Source: a phage
Direction: 5' to 3' (one strand)
DNA: 64,000 nt
Assembly: GCA_024911895.1 (NCBI GenBank)
Contig: GCA_024911895.1_3948.1
The notes beneath the pieces were generated by a model, which was not told the DNA's origin, searched no databases, and was given only the letters and a program-made list of their open reading frames with translations. This document shows positions 5,237 through 64,000 of the stretch, piece by piece. The first letter of the stretch is position 1. Each line of letters opens with the position of its first letter. The position numbers and the translations under genes were made by a program.

Positions 5237-5578
5237 TTAAATCTTGAAAATTTGCTCATTCTGCCACATATCGTAAAACTTATCACTTACTTTTGTGACT
5301 GAAGAAGTGTGCATACAATTCAGGAAGAACCATGATGATGATGTATTATCATCCATAAGTGTTTCAAGTTTTTGTGTAACGTTCACATCCATGTCTGCAA
5401 CAACGTAATTACCTCGCATCTTGCAAACAATCCTTCCAAACAAGATTGCACTTCTCCCTCTTCTGTCATCACAGTACATAACTGTGTCTCCGTGCTTAAC
5501 GTCTTGTCCGATACTGTCAACACCTAACTTAGCACCTGAGATAATGTCATCATAAGATAGCTTTTTTGCTTTAGACAC
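5237..5578 (-). CDS. Hypothetical protein (113 aa)
   Basis: ORF in operon context. Confidence 0.4.
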   Translation of the reverse strand: MSKAKKLSYDDIISGAKLGVDSIGQDVKHGDTVMYCDDRRGRSAILFGRIVCKMRGNYVVADMDVNVTQKLETLMDDNTSSSWFFLNCMHTSSVTKVSDKFYDMWQNEQIFKI

Positions 5579-23016: not shown

Positions 23017-23916
23017 ATGTCACAAGCTGATTTGAGTTACAAAAATATCATGAACCATGTTTTATCCGTTGGTGAACTGCGTACTACACGAACTGGAGAT
23101 GTTATCTCTGCATTTGCTCCACCACAGTTTCGCTTTGATATGCGAACTGGTTTCCCGCTCTTAACATCTAAACAGGTGTTTACACGGCAAGTTATCGGAG
23201 AAGCTTTATGGTTCCTGAATGGTGAGAATAAACTTGGTGAACTCCGTTACCGTACTTGGGGTGAAAATGATGGAGAACGCTGGACTATCTGGTCAGATGA
23301 TTTTAAACGCTGGTTAAGCTCTAACTATTCTTCTGAACAAGATTGGTTAGAGGATGCAGGTGGGAGAATCTACGGAGTTCAGTGGAGAAACTTTGAAGGT
23401 CATAATGGTTGTGTTGTAGACCAACTAGAGACCTTAGTAGCAAAGATGAAGGGTGATATCACAGACCGTTACATGCTTGTTAATGCTTGGAATGCAGCAG
23501 ATATTGCAGCAAACTCAATGGCTTTAGCACCTTGTCATGTTCTGTTTCAGATTTATATCACTAATGAAGGGGAAGTAGATTTGCAATGGTATCAGCGTTC
23601 TGTAGACACCTTTTTAGGACTTCCATTTAACATTGCATCTTACGGCTTTATTCTGGAAGTTCTTTGTAAGATGACTGGGTACACTCCACGATACTTGATA
23701 GGTGTCTTTGGAGATACTCAAATTTATCAGAACCATATGAAGCAGGTTTATGAACTGATGAATAATGAAGAGTTCCATGCGCCTACTTTTGAGATTGGTG
23801 TACAGCTTAACACTCTAAGTGACCTTAAACATCTTACCGCAAGTGATTTTATTGGTGGTATTAGCAACTACAAACATGCAGGAAAGATTGAAGCACCTTT
23901 ATCAGTGGGTAAGTAA
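23017..23916 (+). CDS. td: Thymidylate synthase
   Basis: Active-site region MALAPCHVLFQIY and conserved TRTGD, uninterrupted ORF. Confidence 0.85.
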   Translation: MSQADLSYKNIMNHVLSVGELRTTRTGDVISAFAPPQFRFDMRTGFPLLTSKQVFTRQVIGEALWFLNGENKLGELRYRTWGENDGERWTIWSDDFKRWLSSNYSSEQDWLEDAGGRIYGVQWRNFEGHNGCVVDQLETLVAKMKGDITDRYMLVNAWNAADIAANSMALAPCHVLFQIYITNEGEVDLQWYQRSVDTFLGLPFNIASYGFILEVLCKMTGYTPRYLIGVFGDTQIYQNHMKQVYELMNNEEFHAPTFEIGVQLNTLSDLKHLTASDFIGGISNYKHAGKIEAPLSVGK

Positions 23917-23918
23917 AA

Positions 23919-23958
23919 ACAAAAAGGCTCCTTTTTACGGGAGCCTTAAAATTTTATT
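23919..23958. terminator. Bidirectional rho-independent terminator between convergent operons
   Basis: 8-bp stem AAGGCTCC/GGAGCCTT (23924-23931 / 23940-23947) flanked by A-run and T-run. Confidence 0.6.
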
Positions 23959-24325
23959 TTTCAGTATTCTTTGTGTTCTTTTCAGTAATAGCTTGGAGGG
24001 CTGATACTGATTGAGCCAGATTATTTACACTGTCAGAGAATTTATCAAGAGTTTTGGTAAGTTTTGCGTTTTCACCCTTAACATTCTCTAACTGAACTTT
24101 CTGGTTCTCCATCCCTAGTTGAATCAATCTCATGTCAGACTGTAAATCACGAATAGCTGAATAATTACTTTTGGAATAATTATCTAGCTGCTGTAACTTT
24201 GTTGTGATAGACACTTCTTGTTTACCATCCGAAACTTGCATGGTGGTATACATCCCAATAACACTAAAAATACCAACTACAATTGCACCAATATTATTTT
24301 TAAAAGCTTCCTCTAGCCACTTCAT
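23954..24325 (-). CDS. Membrane-anchored coiled-coil protein (spanin-like?)
   Basis: N-terminal TM NIGAIVVGIFSVIGMY then long coiled-coil; low confidence on function. Confidence 0.3.
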   Translation of the reverse strand: MKWLEEAFKNNIGAIVVGIFSVIGMYTTMQVSDGKQEVSITTKLQQLDNYSKSNYSAIRDLQSDMRLIQLGMENQKVQLENVKGENAKLTKTLDKFSDSVNNLAQSVSALQAITEKNTKNTEK

Positions 24326-24520
24326 TTATTTCTCCCCCTTAAAAGCTTTTTCTAAGTTATCTACGAACTCATCATCAATAGGTGTATCTGTCTTACTTGC
24401 GAGATATCTTGCGAGTCTGAAGAACACTTTCTCAATCATGTATTCACTTAGAAGGGATAAAATGAGTTTCCAGAAGAAGCTACCTAGATTTTTTAGAAGA
24501 ATTGCTAGGATTGTAGGCAT
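24326..24520 (-). CDS. Small membrane protein (64 aa)
   Basis: Hydrophobic N-terminus. Confidence 0.3.
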   Translation of the reverse strand: MPTILAILLKNLGSFFWKLILSLLSEYMIEKVFFRLARYLASKTDTPIDDEFVDNLEKAFKGEK

Positions 24521-46044: not shown

Positions 46045-47661
46045 TCAACGTCTAAGCCCCTCATATGGGTTTCCTCTCACTAAGTCTGTGTGAGCACCCA
46101 TTGATGGTGGCTTGAATAATTTAACTTCGTTAAGACTGTTGAAAGCATCACTGGTAGCATCCACTTGGTCATCTTTAGTTTTGCCGTCACCACAAAAGCC
46201 TTCAAGCTCTTGAAAGTAAGCTTCATTCCAACTACCTCTCAAGACTTTTACAAGTCCAGCTTCAGAAGCAGCAGAAAACCCCGCAAATCGGGTAACTTTA
46301 TCTTTATTTGTCGGTTTAGCTCTTGCACGATAGCCTTTCTCGGCAAGTTTCCTGATGAGGGATGTTGCGTAGGATTTACCAGCAGCGCCTGGGTCTTGAG
46401 GGATAAAAATACCAGTTCGCTTACCGTCACTTTCAGCAGTCAAATTAATTTGTGTTTCGACTCCAGAGGGTCTATCTCTAAATCTTACTACATCAATGAT
46501 ATAATAGCAACCGTCTTTTTTAGATTTACCCATCTTAACACCTGCTGTCCAGTCTGGATTAGGGTTAATCTCAGATGGTAAAGTTGCTGCTAAGTCCCAT
46601 GCTCTAACATCAAACACATCTTCTGGGAGTGAATCAACAATCTCACACCATTGTCTTTGCCAGTAGTTTGAACCTTCTGCACGAGCCTTCCAGTTACCGA
46701 AACGAAGTCTTGCAACGTTTACAGGAGTGTTGTTTTCAAGCTTACCGCGATACTTTGGTTCTAAGAAGTCAAGAATTGGGTTATCGTCAATCGTACCAGA
46801 GATGAAGGTGTATGTTTGAGGAATCTCAAGAGGGAACATTTCAAGAATCTTGTCTCTCTCCCAATCAGAAACCATCACACCATCATTCATTACATACCAA
46901 CGAATGCAACCACACTTTTCAGGGTCTGGATAACCTTCTTCATCTAAGAATGGTTCTACCCAATCGTAAATAAAGTGGTCTCTGTCTGGGTTCATGGAAA
47001 TCTTCATGTATGAATCACCTTCAGCCCCAGAACGTAGACGAGTCTGTAGGTATGAAATCTGTGAAGCAGAGAAGTGTGTACCTTCGTCAAAGTAGATAGC
47101 TGAGTATTCAATACCCTGATGGCCTTCTGCGTGCTTTTCAAGTTCTAGATAGGTAAACTTGATAGTTGCCCCAGAAGGGAATGTGATAGTCATTTTCTGC
47201 TCATGAGGAATCCCACCAAACTTACCAAATAGTTTCTTTGCAGCAGGCCATAAACCACCTTGTAACTGTGTTGTATTTCGACGGAAATATACAGCATTAT
47301 AGTTAGGGTCTTCAATAAATCTTAAAGAGTCCATTAACAATGCAGCAGTTTTACCAGCACCAGCAGCACCACCATAAAGAACCAAGTCAGCATTAGTATT
47401 TAAAAAGACCTCTTGAGAACCCGGCTGAGGGGCTACATAGTTCTTATCAGTCATCAATTTGAAGATAAGTCTAACTTGGTCTGGTGTGTATCTTAATAAA
47501 GTCAGAATTTGAGTTGGAAGGAATTTAGAGGGGTCTTTACCGAATGATTTGATAATTTCTTTTACTTCATCAGAAAGCCCCAACTCTCCAGCTAGGACTT
47601 TCCTAACATCTTCCACTCGCTTCTGCTTAACAGCATTTAAGTCCATTAAGCGCCTCCGCAA
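46045..47661 (-). CDS. Terminase large subunit
   Basis: Walker A VLYGGAAGAGKT, C-terminal nuclease region with acidic residues. Confidence 0.85.
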   Translation of the reverse strand: MRRRLMDLNAVKQKRVEDVRKVLAGELGLSDEVKEIIKSFGKDPSKFLPTQILTLLRYTPDQVRLIFKLMTDKNYVAPQPGSQEVFLNTNADLVLYGGAAGAGKTAALLMDSLRFIEDPNYNAVYFRRNTTQLQGGLWPAAKKLFGKFGGIPHEQKMTITFPSGATIKFTYLELEKHAEGHQGIEYSAIYFDEGTHFSASQISYLQTRLRSGAEGDSYMKISMNPDRDHFIYDWVEPFLDEEGYPDPEKCGCIRWYVMNDGVMVSDWERDKILEMFPLEIPQTYTFISGTIDDNPILDFLEPKYRGKLENNTPVNVARLRFGNWKARAEGSNYWQRQWCEIVDSLPEDVFDVRAWDLAATLPSEINPNPDWTAGVKMGKSKKDGCYYIIDVVRFRDRPSGVETQINLTAESDGKRTGIFIPQDPGAAGKSYATSLIRKLAEKGYRARAKPTNKDKVTRFAGFSAASEAGLVKVLRGSWNEAYFQELEGFCGDGKTKDDQVDATSDAFNSLNEVKLFKPPSMGAHTDLVRGNPYEGLRR

Positions 47662-55960: not shown

Positions 55961-56194
55961 ATGTGTAGTTCCCAATTAGAAATCGCAGATATTATAGATT
56001 TATATCAAACTGCAAAGAGTCATGGCTATATAACCTCAATTGGAAAGAATAGTCACTATGATGCTTTGACTGGAATGTATTTCAGGGCAATGGCTCAATC
56101 TAGTGAACAACACTTAATGGTTTCTTCCAGTGAGTTTACTTCGTTTCTCTATTGCAGCAAAATTATAAATCGCAGGAGAACTGAAAAATGTTAA
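55961..56194 (+). CDS. Hypothetical protein (77 aa)
   Basis: ORF. Confidence 0.35.
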   Translation: MCSSQLEIADIIDLYQTAKSHGYITSIGKNSHYDALTGMYFRAMAQSSEQHLMVSSSEFTSFLYCSKIINRRRTEKC

Positions 56195-56778
56195 CAGTAA
56201 GTTTTAATTACAATAGTGATGGCTCTGTATCAATTAATTCACCTTATGCAAATGACCTATTGAAAGAATTAGTTAATCAGTGTGATAGAGGTCTTCACTA
56301 TGTTCCAAATTCTTTTAAACAGAAGACTATTGCTAATAACTTGATGCGTGTAACAGTAACGTCATCGAATCCAAATTATGACTTTGATAGTGAAAGCCCG
56401 TACTCATTAGTTGCGCTTGGAGAGAGCAGCCAATTCAAACTTGTTTGCCACGACTCAGAAACATTCCTTAAGGTATTTTCCAACCTTATCCATAATAATA
56501 AGTACAGCTACGTTGATGGTAGTGTAAATTTCTATCCAGCAAACTATACATGTTTGTTGGTTGATAATATGAGAAAAAGTAAGCAAGAGCCTACGGAAAT
56601 TTCATTTGATGTGAACTCTAGTCCAGATGCAGAAACAAGTAAGAACTTTGATATGAGTTACGCATTGTCACTCAGTAAGAAATCCGAGTTCATTGATTAT
56701 GTCAATGGATTTGGTTTTAAGTTTGATGAGAGTATGAATCTTAAAAAACTTAAGAACCTACTTAAGACCAAAGCTTAA
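56188..56778 (+). CDS. Hypothetical protein (196 aa)
   Basis: ORF. Confidence 0.4.
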   Translation: MLTVSFNYNSDGSVSINSPYANDLLKELVNQCDRGLHYVPNSFKQKTIANNLMRVTVTSSNPNYDFDSESPYSLVALGESSQFKLVCHDSETFLKVFSNLIHNNKYSYVDGSVNFYPANYTCLLVDNMRKSKQEPTEISFDVNSSPDAETSKNFDMSYALSLSKKSEFIDYVNGFGFKFDESMNLKKLKNLLKTKA

Positions 56779-56825
56779 GTGTGAATAGGGGCTTATGCCC
56801 CTTTAACTATTTATAAGGATATTTA

Positions 56826-57197
56826 ATGAAAGCTAAGAGTGCAAAAGACTTTTATTGCTTCCTACAATCCTATATCAATTCCGTGCAAAATGGTGAAAGG
56901 TACAACCTTAATGATGTTATCCCAACACCTTTGACATGGAGACTCAGTAAATGGCCTGAAGAAGATATTACACCAACAATCGAACAGCGTACCTACAAAC
57001 CTGAAATCAATATTCCAGACTCTGAGAATCTATTATACCCAATGTTCCATATTGTTGGTCTTGGAAGATTCCTTATGGATATCCAGTATGTAATTGGTAA
57101 AGGTTATAAGGTTAAAGGTATTGTCGTTGGTGATGTATCTCCGAATCACAAAGGTTATTTTAGACTAAACGCACATTTAGAGGCTGAAAAGAAATGA
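56826..57197 (+). CDS. Hypothetical protein, paralog of N-terminal domain of the Ig-like protein
   Basis: Shared FMDxQY, KPxxxxPxSxxLLY segments with 57194-58327 N-terminus; ATGA overlap. Confidence 0.45.
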   Translation: MKAKSAKDFYCFLQSYINSVQNGERYNLNDVIPTPLTWRLSKWPEEDITPTIEQRTYKPEINIPDSENLLYPMFHIVGLGRFLMDIQYVIGKGYKVKGIVVGDVSPNHKGYFRLNAHLEAEKK

Positions 57198-58327
57198 TTA
57201 AAGCAAAGACTTACCCAGACTTCAAAGAGTTTGTGAAGGGCTTCATTGCAAACGTAAAGGCTGGTAAGAGATATGATTTTAGAACATATCAAGAGGCTAT
57301 TTTACCACTCACCTATAGTTCGTATTGGCCTGAAGCTGATATTGCAGAAGTTAAGAAGTTTGACTACAAACCAGACTACAAAGTTCCATTTAGTGATGAG
57401 TTGCTTTACAGCGTTGGTGCTCAAATGAGAACTTCTGACTTCTTCATGGACTTACAATATGCAATTATCAATGGTAAAGACGTTGATACAGTTTATTGTG
57501 AATGGTTGGCAAGGGTTAAACCATTCTCAATGTTGAATGCTAAGTTGAAGGATGCTATCAAGCCACCAGCAATTACTCAGCAACCAACAGGTCAAACAGT
57601 CAATGAGGGTGGCACACTTACTCTAAGCATTCTAGCAACTAACGCCACTGGATATCAGTGGAAAAAGGATGGTGAGGACATCCCTAGCGCCAATTCTGCA
57701 ACTTATACAAAACAGGCAGTAGCACCTTCTGACGCTGGTTCATACACTTGTGTTGTATCTGGAGATGGTGGAACAAGTGTTACCTCAGATGCAGCAACAG
57801 TGACTGTGAACGCACTACCTGTGATTACCAAGCAACCTTCTAACCAGACTATTAATGAAGGTGGAAACATCAACTTAGCAGTTACTGCAACAGGTGCAAC
57901 TGGTTACCAATGGAAGAAAGATGGCTCTGACATTCCTTCGGCTACAGAAGCTACCTATAGCAAGTCTGGCGCTCTGCCAGCAGATGCAGGTTCATACACT
58001 TGCGTCGTAACAGGTGCAGGTGGTTCTGTCACTTCTAGCCCTGCAACCATCACTGTGAAAGCTTTACCAGTTATCACTCAACAGCCAACCAATCAAGAAA
58101 TCACTGAAGGTGAGACCTTAACGCTGAATGTTGTGGCAACAGGTGCGACAGGTTACCAATGGAAGAAAGGTGAGGAAGACATCCTCGATGCAACTACTGC
58201 AACTTACACCAAAGAAGGTGCAACCGCTGCTGATGCAGGAAGCTACACCTGTGTAGTTACTGGTGCAGGTGGCTCTGTAACATCCAATGCAGCAACAGTT
58301 ACAGTTAACCCAGCAGGGGAGGCATAA
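57194..58327 (+). CDS. Protein with three tandem Ig-like domains
   Basis: Three repeats of about 82 aa each containing ATGYQWKKDG...AGSYTCVVTGAGGS; N-terminal 130-aa unrelated domain. Confidence 0.6.
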   Translation: MIKAKTYPDFKEFVKGFIANVKAGKRYDFRTYQEAILPLTYSSYWPEADIAEVKKFDYKPDYKVPFSDELLYSVGAQMRTSDFFMDLQYAIINGKDVDTVYCEWLARVKPFSMLNAKLKDAIKPPAITQQPTGQTVNEGGTLTLSILATNATGYQWKKDGEDIPSANSATYTKQAVAPSDAGSYTCVVSGDGGTSVTSDAATVTVNALPVITKQPSNQTINEGGNINLAVTATGATGYQWKKDGSDIPSATEATYSKSGALPADAGSYTCVVTGAGGSVTSSPATITVKALPVITQQPTNQEITEGETLTLNVVATGATGYQWKKGEEDILDATTATYTKEGATAADAGSYTCVVTGAGGSVTSNAATVTVNPAGEA

Positions 58328-58791
58328 TGCAACTCTCAAGAAAAGGTTTAGAAGCTATTAAGTTCTTCGAAGGTCTGGAGTTAGAGGCTTACGAAGACTC
58401 TGCCGGAATCCCTACAATTGGGTATGGAACAATCCGTATTGACGGAAAACCTGTTAAGATGGGTATGAAAATTACTGCTGAACAAGCTGAACAGTATCTT
58501 CTTGCAGATGTTGAGAAGTTCGTTGCAGCAGTGAATAAAGCTATCAAGGTTCCAACTTCTCAGAACGAGTTCGATGCACTTGTAAGTGAAACATACAACA
58601 TCGGTATCACAGCTATGCAGGATTCTACATTTATCAAGCGCCACAATGCTGGTAATAAGGTCGGTTGTGCAGAAGCTATGCAGTGGTGGAACAAGGTTAC
58701 AGTCAAAGGTAAGAAGGTCACTTCAAACGGCCTGAAAAACAGACGTAGAATGGAAGCTGACATTTATCTTGACAGTGTATATCCAAAGTAA
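58327..58791 (+). CDS. Endolysin, GH24 lysozyme (T4 e / lambda R-like)
   Basis: FEGLELEAYEDSAGIPTIGYGT catalytic-Glu region and overall length 154 aa. Confidence 0.75.
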   Translation: MQLSRKGLEAIKFFEGLELEAYEDSAGIPTIGYGTIRIDGKPVKMGMKITAEQAEQYLLADVEKFVAAVNKAIKVPTSQNEFDALVSETYNIGITAMQDSTFIKRHNAGNKVGCAEAMQWWNKVTVKGKKVTSNGLKNRRRMEADIYLDSVYPK

Positions 58792-58800
58792 TATCTTCAT

Positions 58801-58824
58801 AGGCTCCTTCGGGAGCCTTTTTTA
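58801..58824 (+). terminator. Rho-independent terminator after endolysin
   Basis: GGCTCC-TTCG-GGAGCC followed by TTTTTTAT. Confidence 0.65.
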
Positions 58825-58842
58825 TTTTCTAAGGAGAAAACT

Positions 58843-59241
58843 ATGAAACTTTGGGCTAGTGACTTTGGAACTTTTAAGTATACTCGCAATGGCTCGCTTG
58901 TACGCATTGTTGGGAACAATGTAGTTTCAAGAGGTGACAAGGTGTATACACGGTTTACTGTAGAGCTTGTTGAACTGTCACCTATTGAGTCTGTGAACAA
59001 TGGTCTGTTCAAGTTTGAGACTTACAATGTCAATGAGCATGGACAATTCAACCCTCTTGGCGAAAGTGGACTTGATATTATTTCAGAGCACCCATTGACA
59101 AAAGAGCAACTTGCAGGTTACTATAAAACTGTTCTGGAAAGGCAGTTAGCAACACATGAACAAGAAGCTAACTACCATCTACAGCATTGCGAAAATTTAA
59201 GAGCAAAAATCGAACAAGCAGAGAGAGGTTTTTATGAATAA
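58843..59241 (+). CDS. Hypothetical protein (132 aa)
   Basis: ORF with AGGAGA upstream. Confidence 0.4.
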   Translation: MKLWASDFGTFKYTRNGSLVRIVGNNVVSRGDKVYTRFTVELVELSPIESVNNGLFKFETYNVNEHGQFNPLGESGLDIISEHPLTKEQLAGYYKTVLERQLATHEQEANYHLQHCENLRAKIEQAERGFYE

Positions 59242-59629
59242 TAACAGTCATATCCACGTTAAAGTTGATGTCAGCCGTTACAGCGAAAATGAGGAACTAG
59301 ACCTGAAAGATGCTCTTCTCTTTGAGAAGAATGGTAATCTCCATTTGCATTTTGAAGGTACAAACACATATCTCCACAGATGTCGAGATGATGCAGATGG
59401 TTGCCCTGTTTTTGCTTGGTATAATTTAGAGTTTCCTCTTTATGCAATCCACTACCCAGATGGTGGAGAAGACTGGACAACTCAATCAATCTTTGATGAG
59501 CTTAATGGTGTTCCTGTTGAGCAAGAAGAGCAAGAACCTGTTGAACTAACCTTCACTTTCATCAAAGAAGAGAAAGTAGGTGACTTGTCAGTAACTGAAG
59601 CAATTCAAGTCTCACAGGTGATTCGTTAA
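59234..59629 (+). CDS. Hypothetical protein (131 aa)
   Basis: ORF. Confidence 0.4.
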   Translation: MNNNSHIHVKVDVSRYSENEELDLKDALLFEKNGNLHLHFEGTNTYLHRCRDDADGCPVFAWYNLEFPLYAIHYPDGGEDWTTQSIFDELNGVPVEQEEQEPVELTFTFIKEEKVGDLSVTEAIQVSQVIR

Positions 59630-59922
59630 TGAGTAAAGTACAGGTTATTTTCCCTATTTGTGACTTCTCACTAGAGCGTGAACTTGACCTGTATGAAGAA
59701 ATTACTGACGAAATTATCTGGTCTGTTGTAGAAGAGGCTATCAAGAAGCTGTATGGTGGCCTCTTAAATCCATCAAGTAAGAAGTTAAGCACTAAGCAAG
59801 TAGCTGACCCATATGTTTCATACGATGCCTACAACAAACCTTTTGAGAACACCTGCTTTGACCTTATGGTAGGTAATAATAAAGTCAACTATTTCTTCGT
59901 CAGAGAGTTTAACGATGAGTAA
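59629..59922 (+). CDS. Hypothetical protein (97 aa)
   Basis: ORF. Confidence 0.4.
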   Translation: MSKVQVIFPICDFSLERELDLYEEITDEIIWSVVEEAIKKLYGGLLNPSSKKLSTKQVADPYVSYDAYNKPFENTCFDLMVGNNKVNYFFVREFNDE

Positions 59923-60259
59923 GCTCCATGTCACAGTTTACAAAAACTTCTCAGATATCAAAGAGTCTTTAACAAATAAGCTTGACTTACAACGTAAAAG
60001 ACTCTTTTTAATGTATGACATAGACAACTACAACCATCCTAAAGAGTTTAACTACAAAGATGGTACAAAGGTTGTTGAGTTTGAAGATTCTGTGACGGTA
60101 TATGTCAAGCATGACTTACCAGCAAAGTACATAGGGATGCTAGAGTACTACATATTCAAACATACTGGTATGCGTGGTGAGTCTGTTAAGATATCTTCTA
60201 TAGAAGTTTTTGAGAAACCTAACACACAACTTAAAAAGTATTTAATGAGGAAACTGTAA
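59915..60259 (+). CDS. Hypothetical protein (114 aa)
   Basis: ORF. Confidence 0.4.
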   Translation: MSKLHVTVYKNFSDIKESLTNKLDLQRKRLFLMYDIDNYNHPKEFNYKDGTKVVEFEDSVTVYVKHDLPAKYIGMLEYYIFKHTGMRGESVKISSIEVFEKPNTQLKKYLMRKL

Positions 60260-60840
60260 TGTCAGAAGAACATGAGCATATCCAACCAGAAGTTACATTA
60301 GTAAAACATTTCGGAAATGTAGAAGGCTGTGTAGCACTTTTTCAAACCAACATCAATTCTCCAGTCAAACTGTGCAAATTGACGATAAACACCAACAATA
60401 TCAGTGTATGTGTGAATGAAGAAGTCCAGTACTTCAAATTCAATGATAAAGAGGTTGATGCTGCACTATTAAAGTACAGAGCAAATCTTGAAAAAGATAT
60501 TGACCATAAAGAGGTGGTGAGTCTGTTTGCAGACCTTCATAAGCTTCTTGATAAGGTTGAAAAAAGAACATATTACATGAATAATGGCTCAATCATCACT
60601 ACCATGATTTCACCATGTATCTCTGAGCCAATCTTCACAGATGATGGTGCTTACTATGTTGTAGCATCGGCAGTATCTGATTGGTGGTTAAAGAATAACG
60701 CACTGAAGACAGTGATTGAGGCTATCAGAGAACACATCCCTACATTTAGCCCGTGGAAAGGCAAAGGTGATGAATTTATCGCACTATTGAGTGAAGAGAG
60801 CAACAAGCGCAGTGCATTACTGCCTAAAAAATACTCTTGA
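60259..60840 (+). CDS. Hypothetical protein (193 aa)
   Basis: ORF. Confidence 0.4.
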   Translation: MSEEHEHIQPEVTLVKHFGNVEGCVALFQTNINSPVKLCKLTINTNNISVCVNEEVQYFKFNDKEVDAALLKYRANLEKDIDHKEVVSLFADLHKLLDKVEKRTYYMNNGSIITTMISPCISEPIFTDDGAYYVVASAVSDWWLKNNALKTVIEAIREHIPTFSPWKGKGDEFIALLSEESNKRSALLPKKYS

Positions 60841-60923
60841 CCGAGTATACAATATTGATTATGATGGGAGCTATCGAGAGGTAGTTCCCTTTTTAGTTTC
60901 TAGAGAAACACTACGGTGAAAGA

Positions 60924-61142
60924 ATGAAAAGACTAACTACAGTTGAAGATTACTACAAACTGTCCTTGTTAGAACAGTATCGCAGAAGCCAGAATATCAG
61001 AAAATGCTATGGTAAACACGCTGAAGGTGACTTTTACCATTGTTACGATGCAGATTTAAAAGGTGTAACACCTAGAGGCAAAGTACTACAAAGACTTGTT
61101 GACCTTGAGTGGAACAAACGATTGAGAGGGATTGGAAAATGA
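60924..61142 (+). CDS. Hypothetical protein (72 aa)
   Basis: ORF. Confidence 0.35.
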   Translation: MKRLTTVEDYYKLSLLEQYRRSQNIRKCYGKHAEGDFYHCYDADLKGVTPRGKVLQRLVDLEWNKRLRGIGK

Positions 61143-61642
61143 TTTACGAAGAAAGATACAAGATAGATTACCAGAAGACTGGTCATCATGTCTCCCTAAG
61201 AGTAACAAAACCAAACGGAGATACTGGTATCATAGCACATTTTGGTGGTGATTATTGGTATGGCACAGGTTGCTTTGAAGGCTACACTCAAGAGTACTTG
61301 AAAGCTTTCTACAGAGACTTTACAAACGACTACAACAGGGTTGTTGACGAAAAGAATAAGTGCATTAAGCATGAACACCATGCAAGAGGTTGTTTGAGTA
61401 CAGTAATGGTACTGGCATTTTTCTTAGCAACATTACTGGCAGTATCAGCAATCAGTTCCATAGCTCAAGATTTGACCATTACACAGATTACTGCAAAGGT
61501 ATATGATGTTTGGTACTTGTATGCTGCCCCTTTAGTTGGTATCATCATCTCACTAATGAGATTCAGAGTTCATAAGAAACGACTTAAGGACTCTGAGGTT
61601 AAACTTGAAGAGGTAAGTAAAGAATGCAACCTACAATTATAG
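61109..61642 (+). CDS. Hypothetical membrane protein
   Basis: C-terminal hydrophobic segments LSTVMVLAFFLATLLAV and YAAPLVGIIISLM. Confidence 0.4.
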   Translation: MEQTIERDWKMIYEERYKIDYQKTGHHVSLRVTKPNGDTGIIAHFGGDYWYGTGCFEGYTQEYLKAFYRDFTNDYNRVVDEKNKCIKHEHHARGCLSTVMVLAFFLATLLAVSAISSIAQDLTITQITAKVYDVWYLYAAPLVGIIISLMRFRVHKKRLKDSEVKLEEVSKECNLQL

Positions 61643-61718
61643 CTGTATGTGTTCGTTTTGCAATCGCTGAAATGATTAACAAGGCAATCTTAAAAGATGC
61701 CTATGGAGAGACTAAGCA

Positions 61719-61943
61719 ATGATTAAGACACCTGTACCAATTTTTGGATTTCCTTCTATTGAAGAGTTCAAAGTTTACCTTGACAAAAACTTCTACAATG
61801 AGCAGCCTGTTACTTTACTGAAGAGTGACTTATCAGAGCTTCTTGATATGGTTATTAAGGCAACTTCTGAGAAGGAGCCTGAGCAGAAAGCTGAGAAGAA
61901 GACTAGTAAGAAATCCGACAAGAAGACTGAAAAGTCTGAGTAA
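61719..61943 (+). CDS. Hypothetical protein with Lys/Glu-rich C-terminus
   Basis: ORF. Confidence 0.35.
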   Translation: MIKTPVPIFGFPSIEEFKVYLDKNFYNEQPVTLLKSDLSELLDMVIKATSEKEPEQKAEKKTSKKSDKKTEKSE

Positions 61944-61996
61944 TAACTTGAGGGGTTACTTGATAGCCCCTTTGTAGAACTTAGAAGGTAGCGAAT

Positions 61997-62425
61997 ATGC
62001 AAATCATAGCTGGTCAAGAACTTGACATCATAGATGCAAAAACACAGGAGTACATCGCAACAGTGAAGGTTATAGGAGTCAGGGAGTGGAATACTGAATA
62101 CCCAATTCAATGCCTTGTGCTGGAGAAGTTTAAAGCTAATGGTGTACACTTTTACCACGGTGACTACATCAGCTTTAACAAAGATGGTTACTGGCGTGGT
62201 AGTGACCACCCTCAAGCAAATGAGTTTAATATGCGTCTAGCAATACCACAAAAAGATAACCCACAAAACGTAAAAGATATCCTTGTAGAAGCCTATGAAG
62301 AGGGTATAATAGATGTTGTGCATGATGTTGAAAAAGCTTTAAAGCTTTTTATGCCACATTTAGAATCTGGAAAGCTGACTTTAGAGATGCTTAATAGGGT
62401 TATTCGGAGAGCTTATGAAAATTAA
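61997..62425 (+). CDS. Hypothetical protein (142 aa)
   Basis: ORF. Confidence 0.4.
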   Translation: MQIIAGQELDIIDAKTQEYIATVKVIGVREWNTEYPIQCLVLEKFKANGVHFYHGDYISFNKDGYWRGSDHPQANEFNMRLAIPQKDNPQNVKDILVEAYEEGIIDVVHDVEKALKLFMPHLESGKLTLEMLNRVIRRAYEN

Positions 62426-62879
62426 AGTAGTAGTTCAAAAAGCAATGCTTAACAATTCAACTAAAGATAAAATGTACAAAGAGATTTGTGATAAGTTGAA
62501 TTGTTCAAGACATGCTGCTAAGGCTCTTGTGCATTGCTTTATCTTGGAATGCTCAGAAGCTTATATGAAGCATATAGCTTTTGAAAGTTCTAACTCACTA
62601 GGTGATGTAGAAGTTGGTGAGAAGCTAAAAGAACCTGAGATGAAAACAGTTCCTAAAGTTGGTAATGTATACCGCCTTAAAGACTTCAAGACTGGAGAGG
62701 TTGTTGCAAAAGGTGTAGTAGAGTCTGTTTATCATGACGGTAAATACCTATTTAAGATATTTGAGTGTGATAGCATCTATTTACATTTGTTTGGTCTTAC
62801 ATTCTTAGTAACAGAAGAAGACCTTATTAGGAACAATAGCAACAAGTTTGCAGTACCAGCTTACCAAGTTTTACGATAA
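62415..62879 (+). CDS. Hypothetical protein (154 aa)
   Basis: ORF. Confidence 0.4.
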   Translation: MKIKVVVQKAMLNNSTKDKMYKEICDKLNCSRHAAKALVHCFILECSEAYMKHIAFESSNSLGDVEVGEKLKEPEMKTVPKVGNVYRLKDFKTGEVVAKGVVESVYHDGKYLFKIFECDSIYLHLFGLTFLVTEEDLIRNNSNKFAVPAYQVLR

Positions 62880-63441
62880 TGGTGTGATAGATATGGAAAA
62901 AGATAACTTAAAAGAGGTTGAAGGTAACTATCTAGTCCTTGACTGGAAGGACGTTCGGGAAGCACTCTCCGAAGAAAATCTTGACTGGTTTGAACAAATT
63001 ATCTTTGCAGTACGTCATAACAGAGAGACTGTAAATGGTAAAGAGCCATTAGAAGGAATCTTTGTAGACAAGTCTTACCCGTTCTATGAAGATACTTTAC
63101 AGAAAGTTAAGATGTACTTTAGACAGAAGAACCGTAAAGTGGTCACTATGGTATCTCTTGGTGGACAGAGTATGTCTGTGATGGAAGATATCAACCCTAA
63201 GAGGCCGAGTAAAGGTATCTGTATAAAAATCACAGGGCATGAAGAGTATATCTCAGTGAATGACTTTAGCTCATTCTGTAATGGTTCTGCTGTCTTTAAT
63301 GGGTTTCACTATGATATCCGAGTGTACCCAATCAAGGGAGATGATATCATGATGCAGGTATTTGATAACAACAATGGCTTTACTCATTTTTATCAGACAA
63401 CCAAGTCATCACTGAAGACAGTTCTGGAAACACTGGTTTAA
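62848..63441 (+). CDS. Hypothetical protein (197 aa)
   Basis: ORF. Confidence 0.4.
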   Translation: MQYQLTKFYDNGVIDMEKDNLKEVEGNYLVLDWKDVREALSEENLDWFEQIIFAVRHNRETVNGKEPLEGIFVDKSYPFYEDTLQKVKMYFRQKNRKVVTMVSLGGQSMSVMEDINPKRPSKGICIKITGHEEYISVNDFSSFCNGSAVFNGFHYDIRVYPIKGDDIMMQVFDNNNGFTHFYQTTKSSLKTVLETLV

Positions 63442-63479
63442 AATATCTTAAGAGCCTCCTTAATTGGGGGCTTTTTAAT

Positions 63480-63960
63480 TTTTATAAAATTTTATCGGTT
63501 GTCCCAACCTCTGGGTCACCATCATATGTGAATAAAATATCTATCCTTCTTAACAGCCTTCTTAATCTTACTCTCTATATATAGTTATATAGTACTATAT
63601 AGTATCTTAGTATCTATCTAGTGGTCTTAATAGACCCTCTGTATAGCCCTTCTAAACACTCTTCTAACAAGCCTTCTTAACAATCTATACAATCACCTTA
63701 ACCATCTCTCTATAGCCTCTTAGAAGCCCCTATACACCTCTTAATCTCTATGTCACATAGATGACACTCTATAGGTGTTCACTAGGTGCTACTAAGCCTC
63801 TATATAGACTGTTTTAACAAACTTAACAGGAATATCTTTACAGACCTTATCTCACAAGGTCTAACACGGTACTAACAATGTATCTTATAAGCCTGTTATT
63901 ACCTGTATTTTAGAAAGACTGTATAGGTAATTATTCAGATTTTTAAAATTTTTATAAAAT
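63480..63960. repeat. G-poor, CT-rich low-complexity non-coding region with short reiterated motifs
   Basis: No ORF of 60 aa or more; plus strand nearly devoid of G over long stretches; recurring CTTCTTAA, CTATATAG, TCTCTATAG units. Confidence 0.5.
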
Positions 63961-64000
63961 AGGACTATCAAGTCATTTTTTAGGGTCTTTGAAGGAACTC

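Follow-up and report, generated by a model that had tools for sequence, protein, structure and literature searches.

A conserved G-poor repeat region beside the direct terminal repeat of a Felix O1-type phage and its possible role in genome-end formation

A gene-free stretch of unusual composition at the end of a gene cluster raises the question of what it is there for. Such a stretch was flagged by a sequence-only reading at positions 63480-63960 of a 64-kb piece of DNA from a Felix O1-type phage (hereafter the window). Our comparisons with related phages indicate that the flagged stretch is very probably unique, non-coding sub-terminal DNA lying between the terminator of the plus-strand genes and a direct terminal repeat (DTR) of ~600 bp. 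The location of the DTR is already known for Felixounavirus, and the conserved, subfamily-wide motif architecture of its flank appears to be previously undescribed. We consider the chances about even that the flagged region is a cis-acting sub-terminal element serving terminase recognition and DTR processing.

The description of the stretch as non-coding was borne out, considering that neither strand of 63442-64000 contains any open reading frame (ORF) of at least 30 amino acids. The longest ORFs there have 29, 28, and 21 amino acids, none of them is kept in relatives, and no period-3 signal was detected. The base content of the flagged stretch is A 31.2, C 21.4, G 10.8, and T 36.6%, with a GC skew of -0.33 (G 7.8% and skew -0.53 in its core, 63530-63760), which makes it the lowest-G 481-nt stretch of the window and almost the most negative in skew (~0.03-0.08 percentile). 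The proposed strand asymmetry and G depletion are thus real, and the label "CT-rich" is the weakest part of the description, as the pyrimidine excess is moderate (C+T of 58% in the flagged stretch and 62% in the core). The second low-G spot of the window (24226-24400, at ~24.2 kb) is ordinary minus-strand coding sequence. The claim of reiterated motifs holds for most of the motifs concerned: CTTCTTAA has three of its nine window copies in the flagged stretch (0.07 expected from the window density), CTATATAG has both of its two, and CTATA and TATAG are also enriched (7 of 38 and 8 of 52 window copies, respectively). It fails for TCTCTATAG, which is present once, so that the exact 9-mer itself is not reiterated; CTCTATAG-like variants do recur. 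The 150-nt windows richest in TAACA and in TATAG/CTATA across the 64 kb all fall in the flagged region, no comparable motif clusters were found elsewhere in the window, and base autocorrelation in the region peaks at lags of 11-12 nt (z 3.0-3.8). The stretch also lies, as had been stated, at the end of the plus-strand cluster, whose last gene stops at 63441 and is followed by a terminator hairpin at 63451-63476.

Matches to the flagged region at 80-96% identity are found in 217 phage records, nearly all of them from Felix O1-like phages (Felixounavirus), and at least 80% of it is covered in 246 of the 258 matching records. Judged from these matches, the window phage is a Felix O1-like myophage of the genus Felixounavirus. 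Over its last 8 kb (56000-64000), the best database match is ~93% identical, and an exact match is absent from the viral and metagenome contig collections; since no record exceeds ~93% over these 8 kb, the window phage itself is absent from the record collection. Four IMG/VR matches are relatives at 90-95% identity. The window phage is probably an undeposited, species-level new Felixounavirus.

In relatives (mio, KhF2, Mordin, and Sf17), the flagged region corresponds to the first third (~560 nt) of an ORF-free gap of ~1.65 kb between convergent gene clusters, and several lines of evidence place the DTR inside this gap. A DTR of 608 bp was mapped in UAB_Phi87 by Bal31 digestion and sequencing run-off (PMC4837284), and PhageTerm analyses gave DTRs of 581 bp for Pr103Blw (PMC8303462) and ~581 bp for Philippine isolates (PMC11737134). 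The UAB_69 record carries a 618-bp "DTR" feature inside the gap (100% identical to UAB_Phi87), and window position 63999 aligns 31 nt before the first base of this feature. Exact repeats are present at both record ends of ECP2307 and I14.1 (592 and 581 bp, respectively) with identical boundary sequences, in which TGTATATCTGCTT is directly followed by GGTAGCCCTTAACA at the near boundary and TGTTAAGGGGGC by TAGCATTTACG at the far boundary, and the records of SeKF_63, ZX4221, pEP20, and E9 open at the same boundary. DTR length among relatives thus ranges from 581 to 618 bp, and the flagged region is 89-96% identical to the DNA directly preceding Felixounavirus DTRs. By homology, the DTR boundary of the window phage would be located at ~64031-64032, past the window end. 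The suggestion that the stretch marks a terminal-repeat boundary was therefore right in substance; since the DTR starts 31-32 nt beyond the window (~70 nt after 63960), the flagged stretch is unique flanking DNA that abuts the boundary and is not the boundary itself. Its site between the terminator and the DTR would put it ~0.6-1.2 kb from one physical end in the packaged genome, and in the replicative concatemer it would form one flank of the genome-to-genome junction.

Previous descriptions of this locus are brief. The Felix O1 genome paper described the convergent transcription units with the gap unmentioned, inferred only "short terminal repeats", opened the sequence at rIIA, and reported direct repeats elsewhere but none at the gap (PMC3185647). 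In the records of Danish phages, the gap carries only two "repeat_region" tags. Several records show oddities (accession numbers PP892526.1 for I14.1, GU169904.1, and JN225449.1): the deposited record of UAB_Phi87 does not open at the mapped physical end, I14.1 has a Tequintavirus lineage in its record, yet its sequence is Felix O1-like, and the record of "Staphylococcus phage SA1" contains a Felix O1-type gap at ~91% identity.

We then considered the junction as a whole. In mio, TAACA occurs 28 times on the plus strand of the 1.66-kb gap, which corresponds to 16.9 per kb compared with 1.9 per kb over the remainder of the window. Most of these copies are embedded in (T)CTTAACA(G/A) or CTAACAAG, a spacing of exactly 11 nt is frequent, and three inverted copies are located at the far DTR end. 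The sparser outer members of this array lie in the flagged flank, where TAACA is found seven times, in part as pairs at a distance of 9-13 nt. TATATAG and CTCTATAG form a second motif class, which marks both flanks and is scarce within the DTR. The two DTR boundaries can be aligned with each other when one is inverted, with TGCTT directly before GGTAGCCCTTAACA matching TGCTA directly before GCCCCCTTAACA on the other strand (z 4.7 vs shuffles). They lie at 936/937 and 1527/1528 in mio (L001), the inverted motif is also present in ECP2307 and I14.1, and a CTTAACA core is found at both cut sites in inverted orientation. The presence of an inverted motif at both boundaries suggests that nicking may be symmetric, on opposite strands. 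Furthermore, G is scarce in both flanks on the DTR-ward strand, which is the sense strand of the converging genes, and short inverted elements common to the two flanks occur only within ~150 nt of the boundaries. Repeated sites that adjoin the cleavage positions and are symmetric about them, as in pac/cos-type signals, are thus present at this junction. The other convergent junction of the window (23916-23954) is only ~38 nt long and has one hairpin of the bidirectional-terminator type (AAAAAGGCTCC...GGAGCCTTAAAATTTT), implying that keeping converging transcription apart does not by itself call for 1.65 kb, and the symmetry of the arrays around the mapped genome ends points to end formation.

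The features of the flagged region and its surroundings are as follows (window coordinates; strand given where assigned).

62848-63441, plus strand: last gene of the plus-strand cluster, 197 amino acids, phrog_4330, function unassigned; in mio, UAB_69, Mordin, and Sf17, a homologous coding sequence likewise lies before the gap.
63451-63476, plus strand: intrinsic terminator, made up of the hairpin AGAGCCTCC-TTAATT-GGGGGCT and a T run after it, which ends plus-strand transcription before the flagged region; the KhF2 and Mordin records label it a Rho-independent terminator.
63478-63494: AT-only block ATTTTTATAAAATTTTA, inverted-repeat partner of 63944-63960, the pair bracketing the region; invariant in all aligned genera.
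63513-63541, plus strand: conserved block GGGTCACCAT..ATGTGA.TAAAATATC in the alignment, holding a DnaA-box-like 9-mer (63527-63535, minus strand; chance level).
63546-63566, plus strand: two CTTCTTAA(C) units at a spacing of 12 nt, the first members of the YTCT(T)AAC(A) family.
63575-63612: three tandem TATATAG (8-10-nt period) plus CTTAGTA, inverted-repeat partner of 63790-63807; conserved in three genera and tagged "repeat_region" in mio.
63648-63683, plus strand: 12-nt tandem array CCTTCTAAACAC/TCTTCTAACAAG/CCTTCTTAACAA.
63685-63753, plus strand: conserved blocks CTATACAATCACCTT and CTTAGAAGCCCCTATA..TCTTAATCTCTA in the alignment.
63751-63766: small variable palindrome, TGTCA..TGACA in the window phage and GGTA..TACC in EP1 and Sf17.
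63779-63828, plus strand: conserved block TCACTAGGT..ACTAAGCCTCTATATAGACTGTT, then a TAACA pair 9 nt apart.
63846-63896, plus strand: 51-nt block, near-invariant in Felixounavirus, Suspvirus, and Mooglevirus, with two TAACA 11 nt apart (GGTCTAACACGGTACTAACAAGG).
63944-63962: AT-rich block TAAAATTTTTATAAAATAG, invariant in the alignment.
63977-64000, plus strand: conserved block TTTTTAGGGTCTTTGAAGGAACTC running off the window end; in relatives it is followed by 31-32 nt with TGTATATCTGCTT at their end and then by the DTR, which opens with GGTAGCCCTTAACA.
46045-47661, minus strand: large terminase subunit (TerL), the enzyme presumed to act at the genome-end sites nearby.

Some of these features differ among phages. 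The 12-nt unit CCTTCTAACAAG of the array at 63648-63683 has three copies in the window phage and more in ECP2307 and the IMG/VR contig L017. In the few sequences at hand, the two forms of the palindrome at 63751-63766 look like a compensatory change in a short hairpin or a dimer site. In KhF2, I14.1, and Sf17, an extra ~26 nt (TGAGTAAATTTTACGAAATTTATA) are present at 63476/63477, directly after the terminator, which are absent from the window phage, mio, and ECP2307.

The flagged region is also conserved. It is 79-82% identical to its counterpart in the Mooglevirus Mordin, compared with 71% at the third codon positions of TerL (88% overall) and 53% at those of the gene adjoining the region (64% overall). 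In an alignment of nine sequences from Felixounavirus, Suspvirus, and Mooglevirus, all parts of the gap show 75-85% cross-genus identity and the flanking genes 61-71%, and blocks of 19-51 nt are invariant across the three genera (e.g., 63846-63896 and 63944-63962). On these identities, the flagged region is under purifying selection, which is less than that on a core gene and more than that on synonymous sites.

The fourth genus of Ounavirinae, Kolesnikvirus, provides a more distant comparison. In Erwinia phage Tian, whose TerL is ~72% identical, blastn revealed no similarity to the flagged region beyond a terminator-like 42 nt. This match was rejected as a homologous gap because of its terminator-like nature and non-syntenic site, and the syntenic convergent gap was located from the genome map. 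The latter gap, inverted relative to the window, contains a terminator and then the same layout. CTTAAC(A) is found seven times towards the repeat and never away from it on one flank, TTCTAA 12 times and never on the other, with 10-12-nt spacing; in both flanks the strand pointing to the centre is the G-poor one, and the centre itself is occupied by TTAACA/TGTTAA arrays. Two gap positions ~440 bp apart serve as record termini in Kolesnikvirus, one as the end of nine records and the other as the start of three. The exact 13-mer TGTATATCTGCTT, located at 5390-5402 on the minus strand in Tian (L014), abuts the end position of those nine records and likewise abuts the Felixounavirus DTR boundary. 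A DTR of ~440 bp is therefore suggested for Kolesnikvirus; it is not proven, since Prophecy is opened at the site without the repeat carried twice. These alignments and gap maps show that the sub-terminal architecture, as a layout of motifs, recurs in all four Ounavirinae genera.

A role of the flagged region in genome-end formation might work in the following way. The one-orientation YTCT(T)AAC(A) arrays, which start in the flagged flank, are densest in the DTR and are inverted at both cut sites, would offer sites about one helical turn apart to the DNA-recognition part of the packaging machinery, i.e., TerL and a putative partner. Binding would position the nicks, after TGCTT on the near flank and after TGCTA on the opposite strand at the far flank, and once the 3' ends had been extended across the repeat, each daughter genome would possess a full DTR. 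Staggered nicking of this Watson type is a model for T7-type ends. The G-poor, CT-rich asymmetry might then simply follow from the shared DTR-ward orientation of all sites. A candidate for the DNA-recognition partner is the product of a 66-amino-acid ORF directly upstream of TerL (47668-47868, minus strand; phrog_4397), which has no Pfam match above threshold. A broader version of this scheme, which we offer tentatively and regard as rather less probable than not, is that mirror-oriented YTCT(T)AAC(A) arrays together with a nick motif (cut after TGTATATCTGCTT and after the inverted TGCTA) may constitute an undescribed, Ounavirinae-wide end-formation signal that is read by a putative recognition factor in phages without a recognisable small terminase. 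The flagged region would be an essential half of this signal, and one-orientation G-poor arrays beside the DTRs of unrelated phages such as T7 might reflect a common physical need of staggered-nick DTR duplication.

Several observations weigh against assigning the flagged region to packaging, a role that the sequence-only reading had listed as well. The role is inferred from sequence features, the DTR boundary of the window phage rests on homology, with the window stopping 31 nt short of it, and most of the boundary evidence in databases consists of terminus calls made by depositors. No recognisable small terminase subunit was found beside TerL, and the ORF upstream of TerL is without an informative match; the Felix O1 genome paper likewise reports only a TerL (PMC3185647). 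A mirror alignment of the two whole flanks was not significant (22 vs 21.3 +/- 2.5). Moreover, the densest and best-phased arrays as well as both cut sites are located outside the flagged coordinates, and the copy number of the 12-nt unit varies freely among phages; the flagged flank could be peripheral or dispensable. With regard to other sources, the Bas63 PhageMaP knockout library targeted genes only, and a search of the literature for a Felixounavirus transcriptome found none.

Other functions that could be assigned to this DNA involve transcription or replication. The region might act as a transcription buffer or a Rho-dependent fail-safe terminator, in which read-through RNA would load Rho and transcription would be halted before the DTR and the packaging signals, and the opposite flank would do likewise for its own cluster. 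Untranslated RNA that is C-rich and G-poor with regularly spaced C is a good Rho loading (rut) substrate, and the read-through RNA would be of this kind: the region starts directly after the intrinsic terminator, offers at least 80 untranslated nt with C of 21-26% vs G of 8-11% (C/G of ~3 in the core), and has C residues every 11-13 nt in keeping with its 11-12-nt periodicity. The polarity is the same on the opposite flank, and the DTR-ward strand is the sense strand of the converging genes, with more C than G (skew -0.17 to -0.27) on both flanks in both Felixounavirus and Kolesnikvirus. However, a rut site needs composition and not sequence, yet blocks of 19-51 nt are invariant here and the region is more conserved than the synonymous sites of TerL. 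Such a terminator would also leave the palindromic TATATAG arrays and the nested inverted repeats unexplained, the other convergent junction manages with ~38 nt and one hairpin, and T7 has a similar G-poor array although T7 RNA polymerase is Rho-insensitive. We thus regard Rho-dependent termination as unlikely. A replication origin, which the sequence-only reading had also proposed, would explain the reiterated, helically phased short motifs as iterons for a phage initiator and the invariant AT-only blocks (63478-63494 and 63944-63962) as an unwinding element, and there is one perfect match to the DnaA box TTATNCACA at 63527-63535 (minus strand). But the window contains four such boxes vs 4.18 expected, which leaves this single match at chance level, and the match is not retained in Suspvirus, Mooglevirus, and UAB_69. 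The cumulative GC skew, which had been named as a check, does turn at the locus; the turn is a local maximum and not a minimum, and it merely tracks the change in gene orientation from the plus to the minus strand. The genes on either side are transcribed towards the site, not away from it, the arrays are symmetric around mapped genome ends, and phased repeats and AT-only blocks fit packaging sites as well as an iteron origin. The origin proposal therefore has little in its favour, and we consider it improbable.

A different function linked to the genome ends, such as a platform for an end-protecting or circularising protein or a host nucleoid protein, an ejection leader or trailer, or a hairpin that primes repeat duplication, is quite unlikely as well. 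A hairpin model for repeat duplication in T7 was reportedly put forward by Chung, Nardone and Hinkle in 1990. The sub-terminal position would suit such functions, as would the nested inverted repeats that run along the region, and both strands give a better fold than shuffled sequences (z -5.4 and -3.5). Against this, all 81 of the 81 predicted pairs are invariant or changed on one side only, so that pairing is neither supported nor contradicted, and these functions come without a candidate protein. They overlap with a role in terminase recognition and DTR processing rather than exclude it. By comparison, a gene for a small protein or a structured non-coding RNA is essentially excluded. Some records annotate short hypothetical ORFs in the gap and the fold z-scores are negative, but the longest ORFs (21-29 amino acids) are unconserved, a period-3 signal is lacking, a terminator lies directly upstream, and a convincing promoter is absent. 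Candidate sigma-70 promoters in the gap amounted to 11 weak matches vs 6.8 expected, none of which was convincing or had anything downstream to transcribe; most of them reflect the likeness of TTAACA to TTGACA and of TATAGT to TATAAT. An Rfam scan of the whole gap yielded nothing below E ~0.3, and RNAalifold analysis of eight sequences from three genera found no compensatory pair among 81. The negative fold z-scores can be attributed to the conserved inverted repeats, which are kept as sequence.

Felix O1-type phages are widely used in typing, biocontrol, and therapy directed at Salmonella and E. coli, and they are now engineered and rebooted from DNA. Many database records open the Felix O1-type genome at arbitrary points, and knowledge of the exact genome ends and of the flanking DNA to retain is of practical use for assembly, annotation, and synthetic reconstruction. 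The region also provides a concrete candidate for cut-site marking in a phage group that lacks a recognisable small terminase subunit. Its odd composition does not signify an origin.

Arrays of this kind have a precedent in T7, where they were reportedly named SRL and SRR by Dunn and Studier in 1983; to our knowledge, a specific role of these arrays has not been firmly established. When analysed by the same script, the 244 nt beside the 160-bp terminal repeat of T7 have G of 11% and a skew of -0.44, and contain eight CCTAAAG in one orientation at 13-nt spacing, with three further copies inside the repeat. T7 and the flagged region thus share an ORF-free, G-depleted stretch with a 7-nt-class motif in one orientation, spaced at about a helical turn and also present inside the repeat. 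The T7 array directly abuts a short exact DTR, and the flagged region lies beside a DTR by homology. In T7, events at the concatemer junction have been tied to packaging (PMC3276506). However, the motifs are different (CCTAAAG in T7 vs YTCT(T)AACA/TATATAG in Ounavirinae), the phage families and their terminases are unrelated, and the strand poor in G is the same for both T7 flanks (direct arrangement), whereas in Ounavirinae it is, for each flank, the one that runs towards the repeat (mirror arrangement). The likeness to the T7 arrays is an analogy and not homology. Functional models of phased short sites that flank a cut are offered by pacL/pacR of SPP1 and cosB of lambda, in which, as in the region studied here, helically phased clusters of short sites flank the cleavage position with inverted elements on either side. 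They differ in that the small terminase and its footprints are known for SPP1 and lambda, whereas in the window phage, with its predicted sites, no small terminase is identifiable, and in that SPP1 and lambda use headful packaging or cohesive ends and Felixounavirus an exact short DTR. The remaining close system, the Felixounavirus DTR locus, is the same locus by homology; the papers and records that could be read define the repeat and leave the flanking G-poor arrays uninterpreted. Compared with all these systems, the flagged region is not a new principle or a new kind of element but extends a known theme, namely that of repeat arrays beside terminal repeats.

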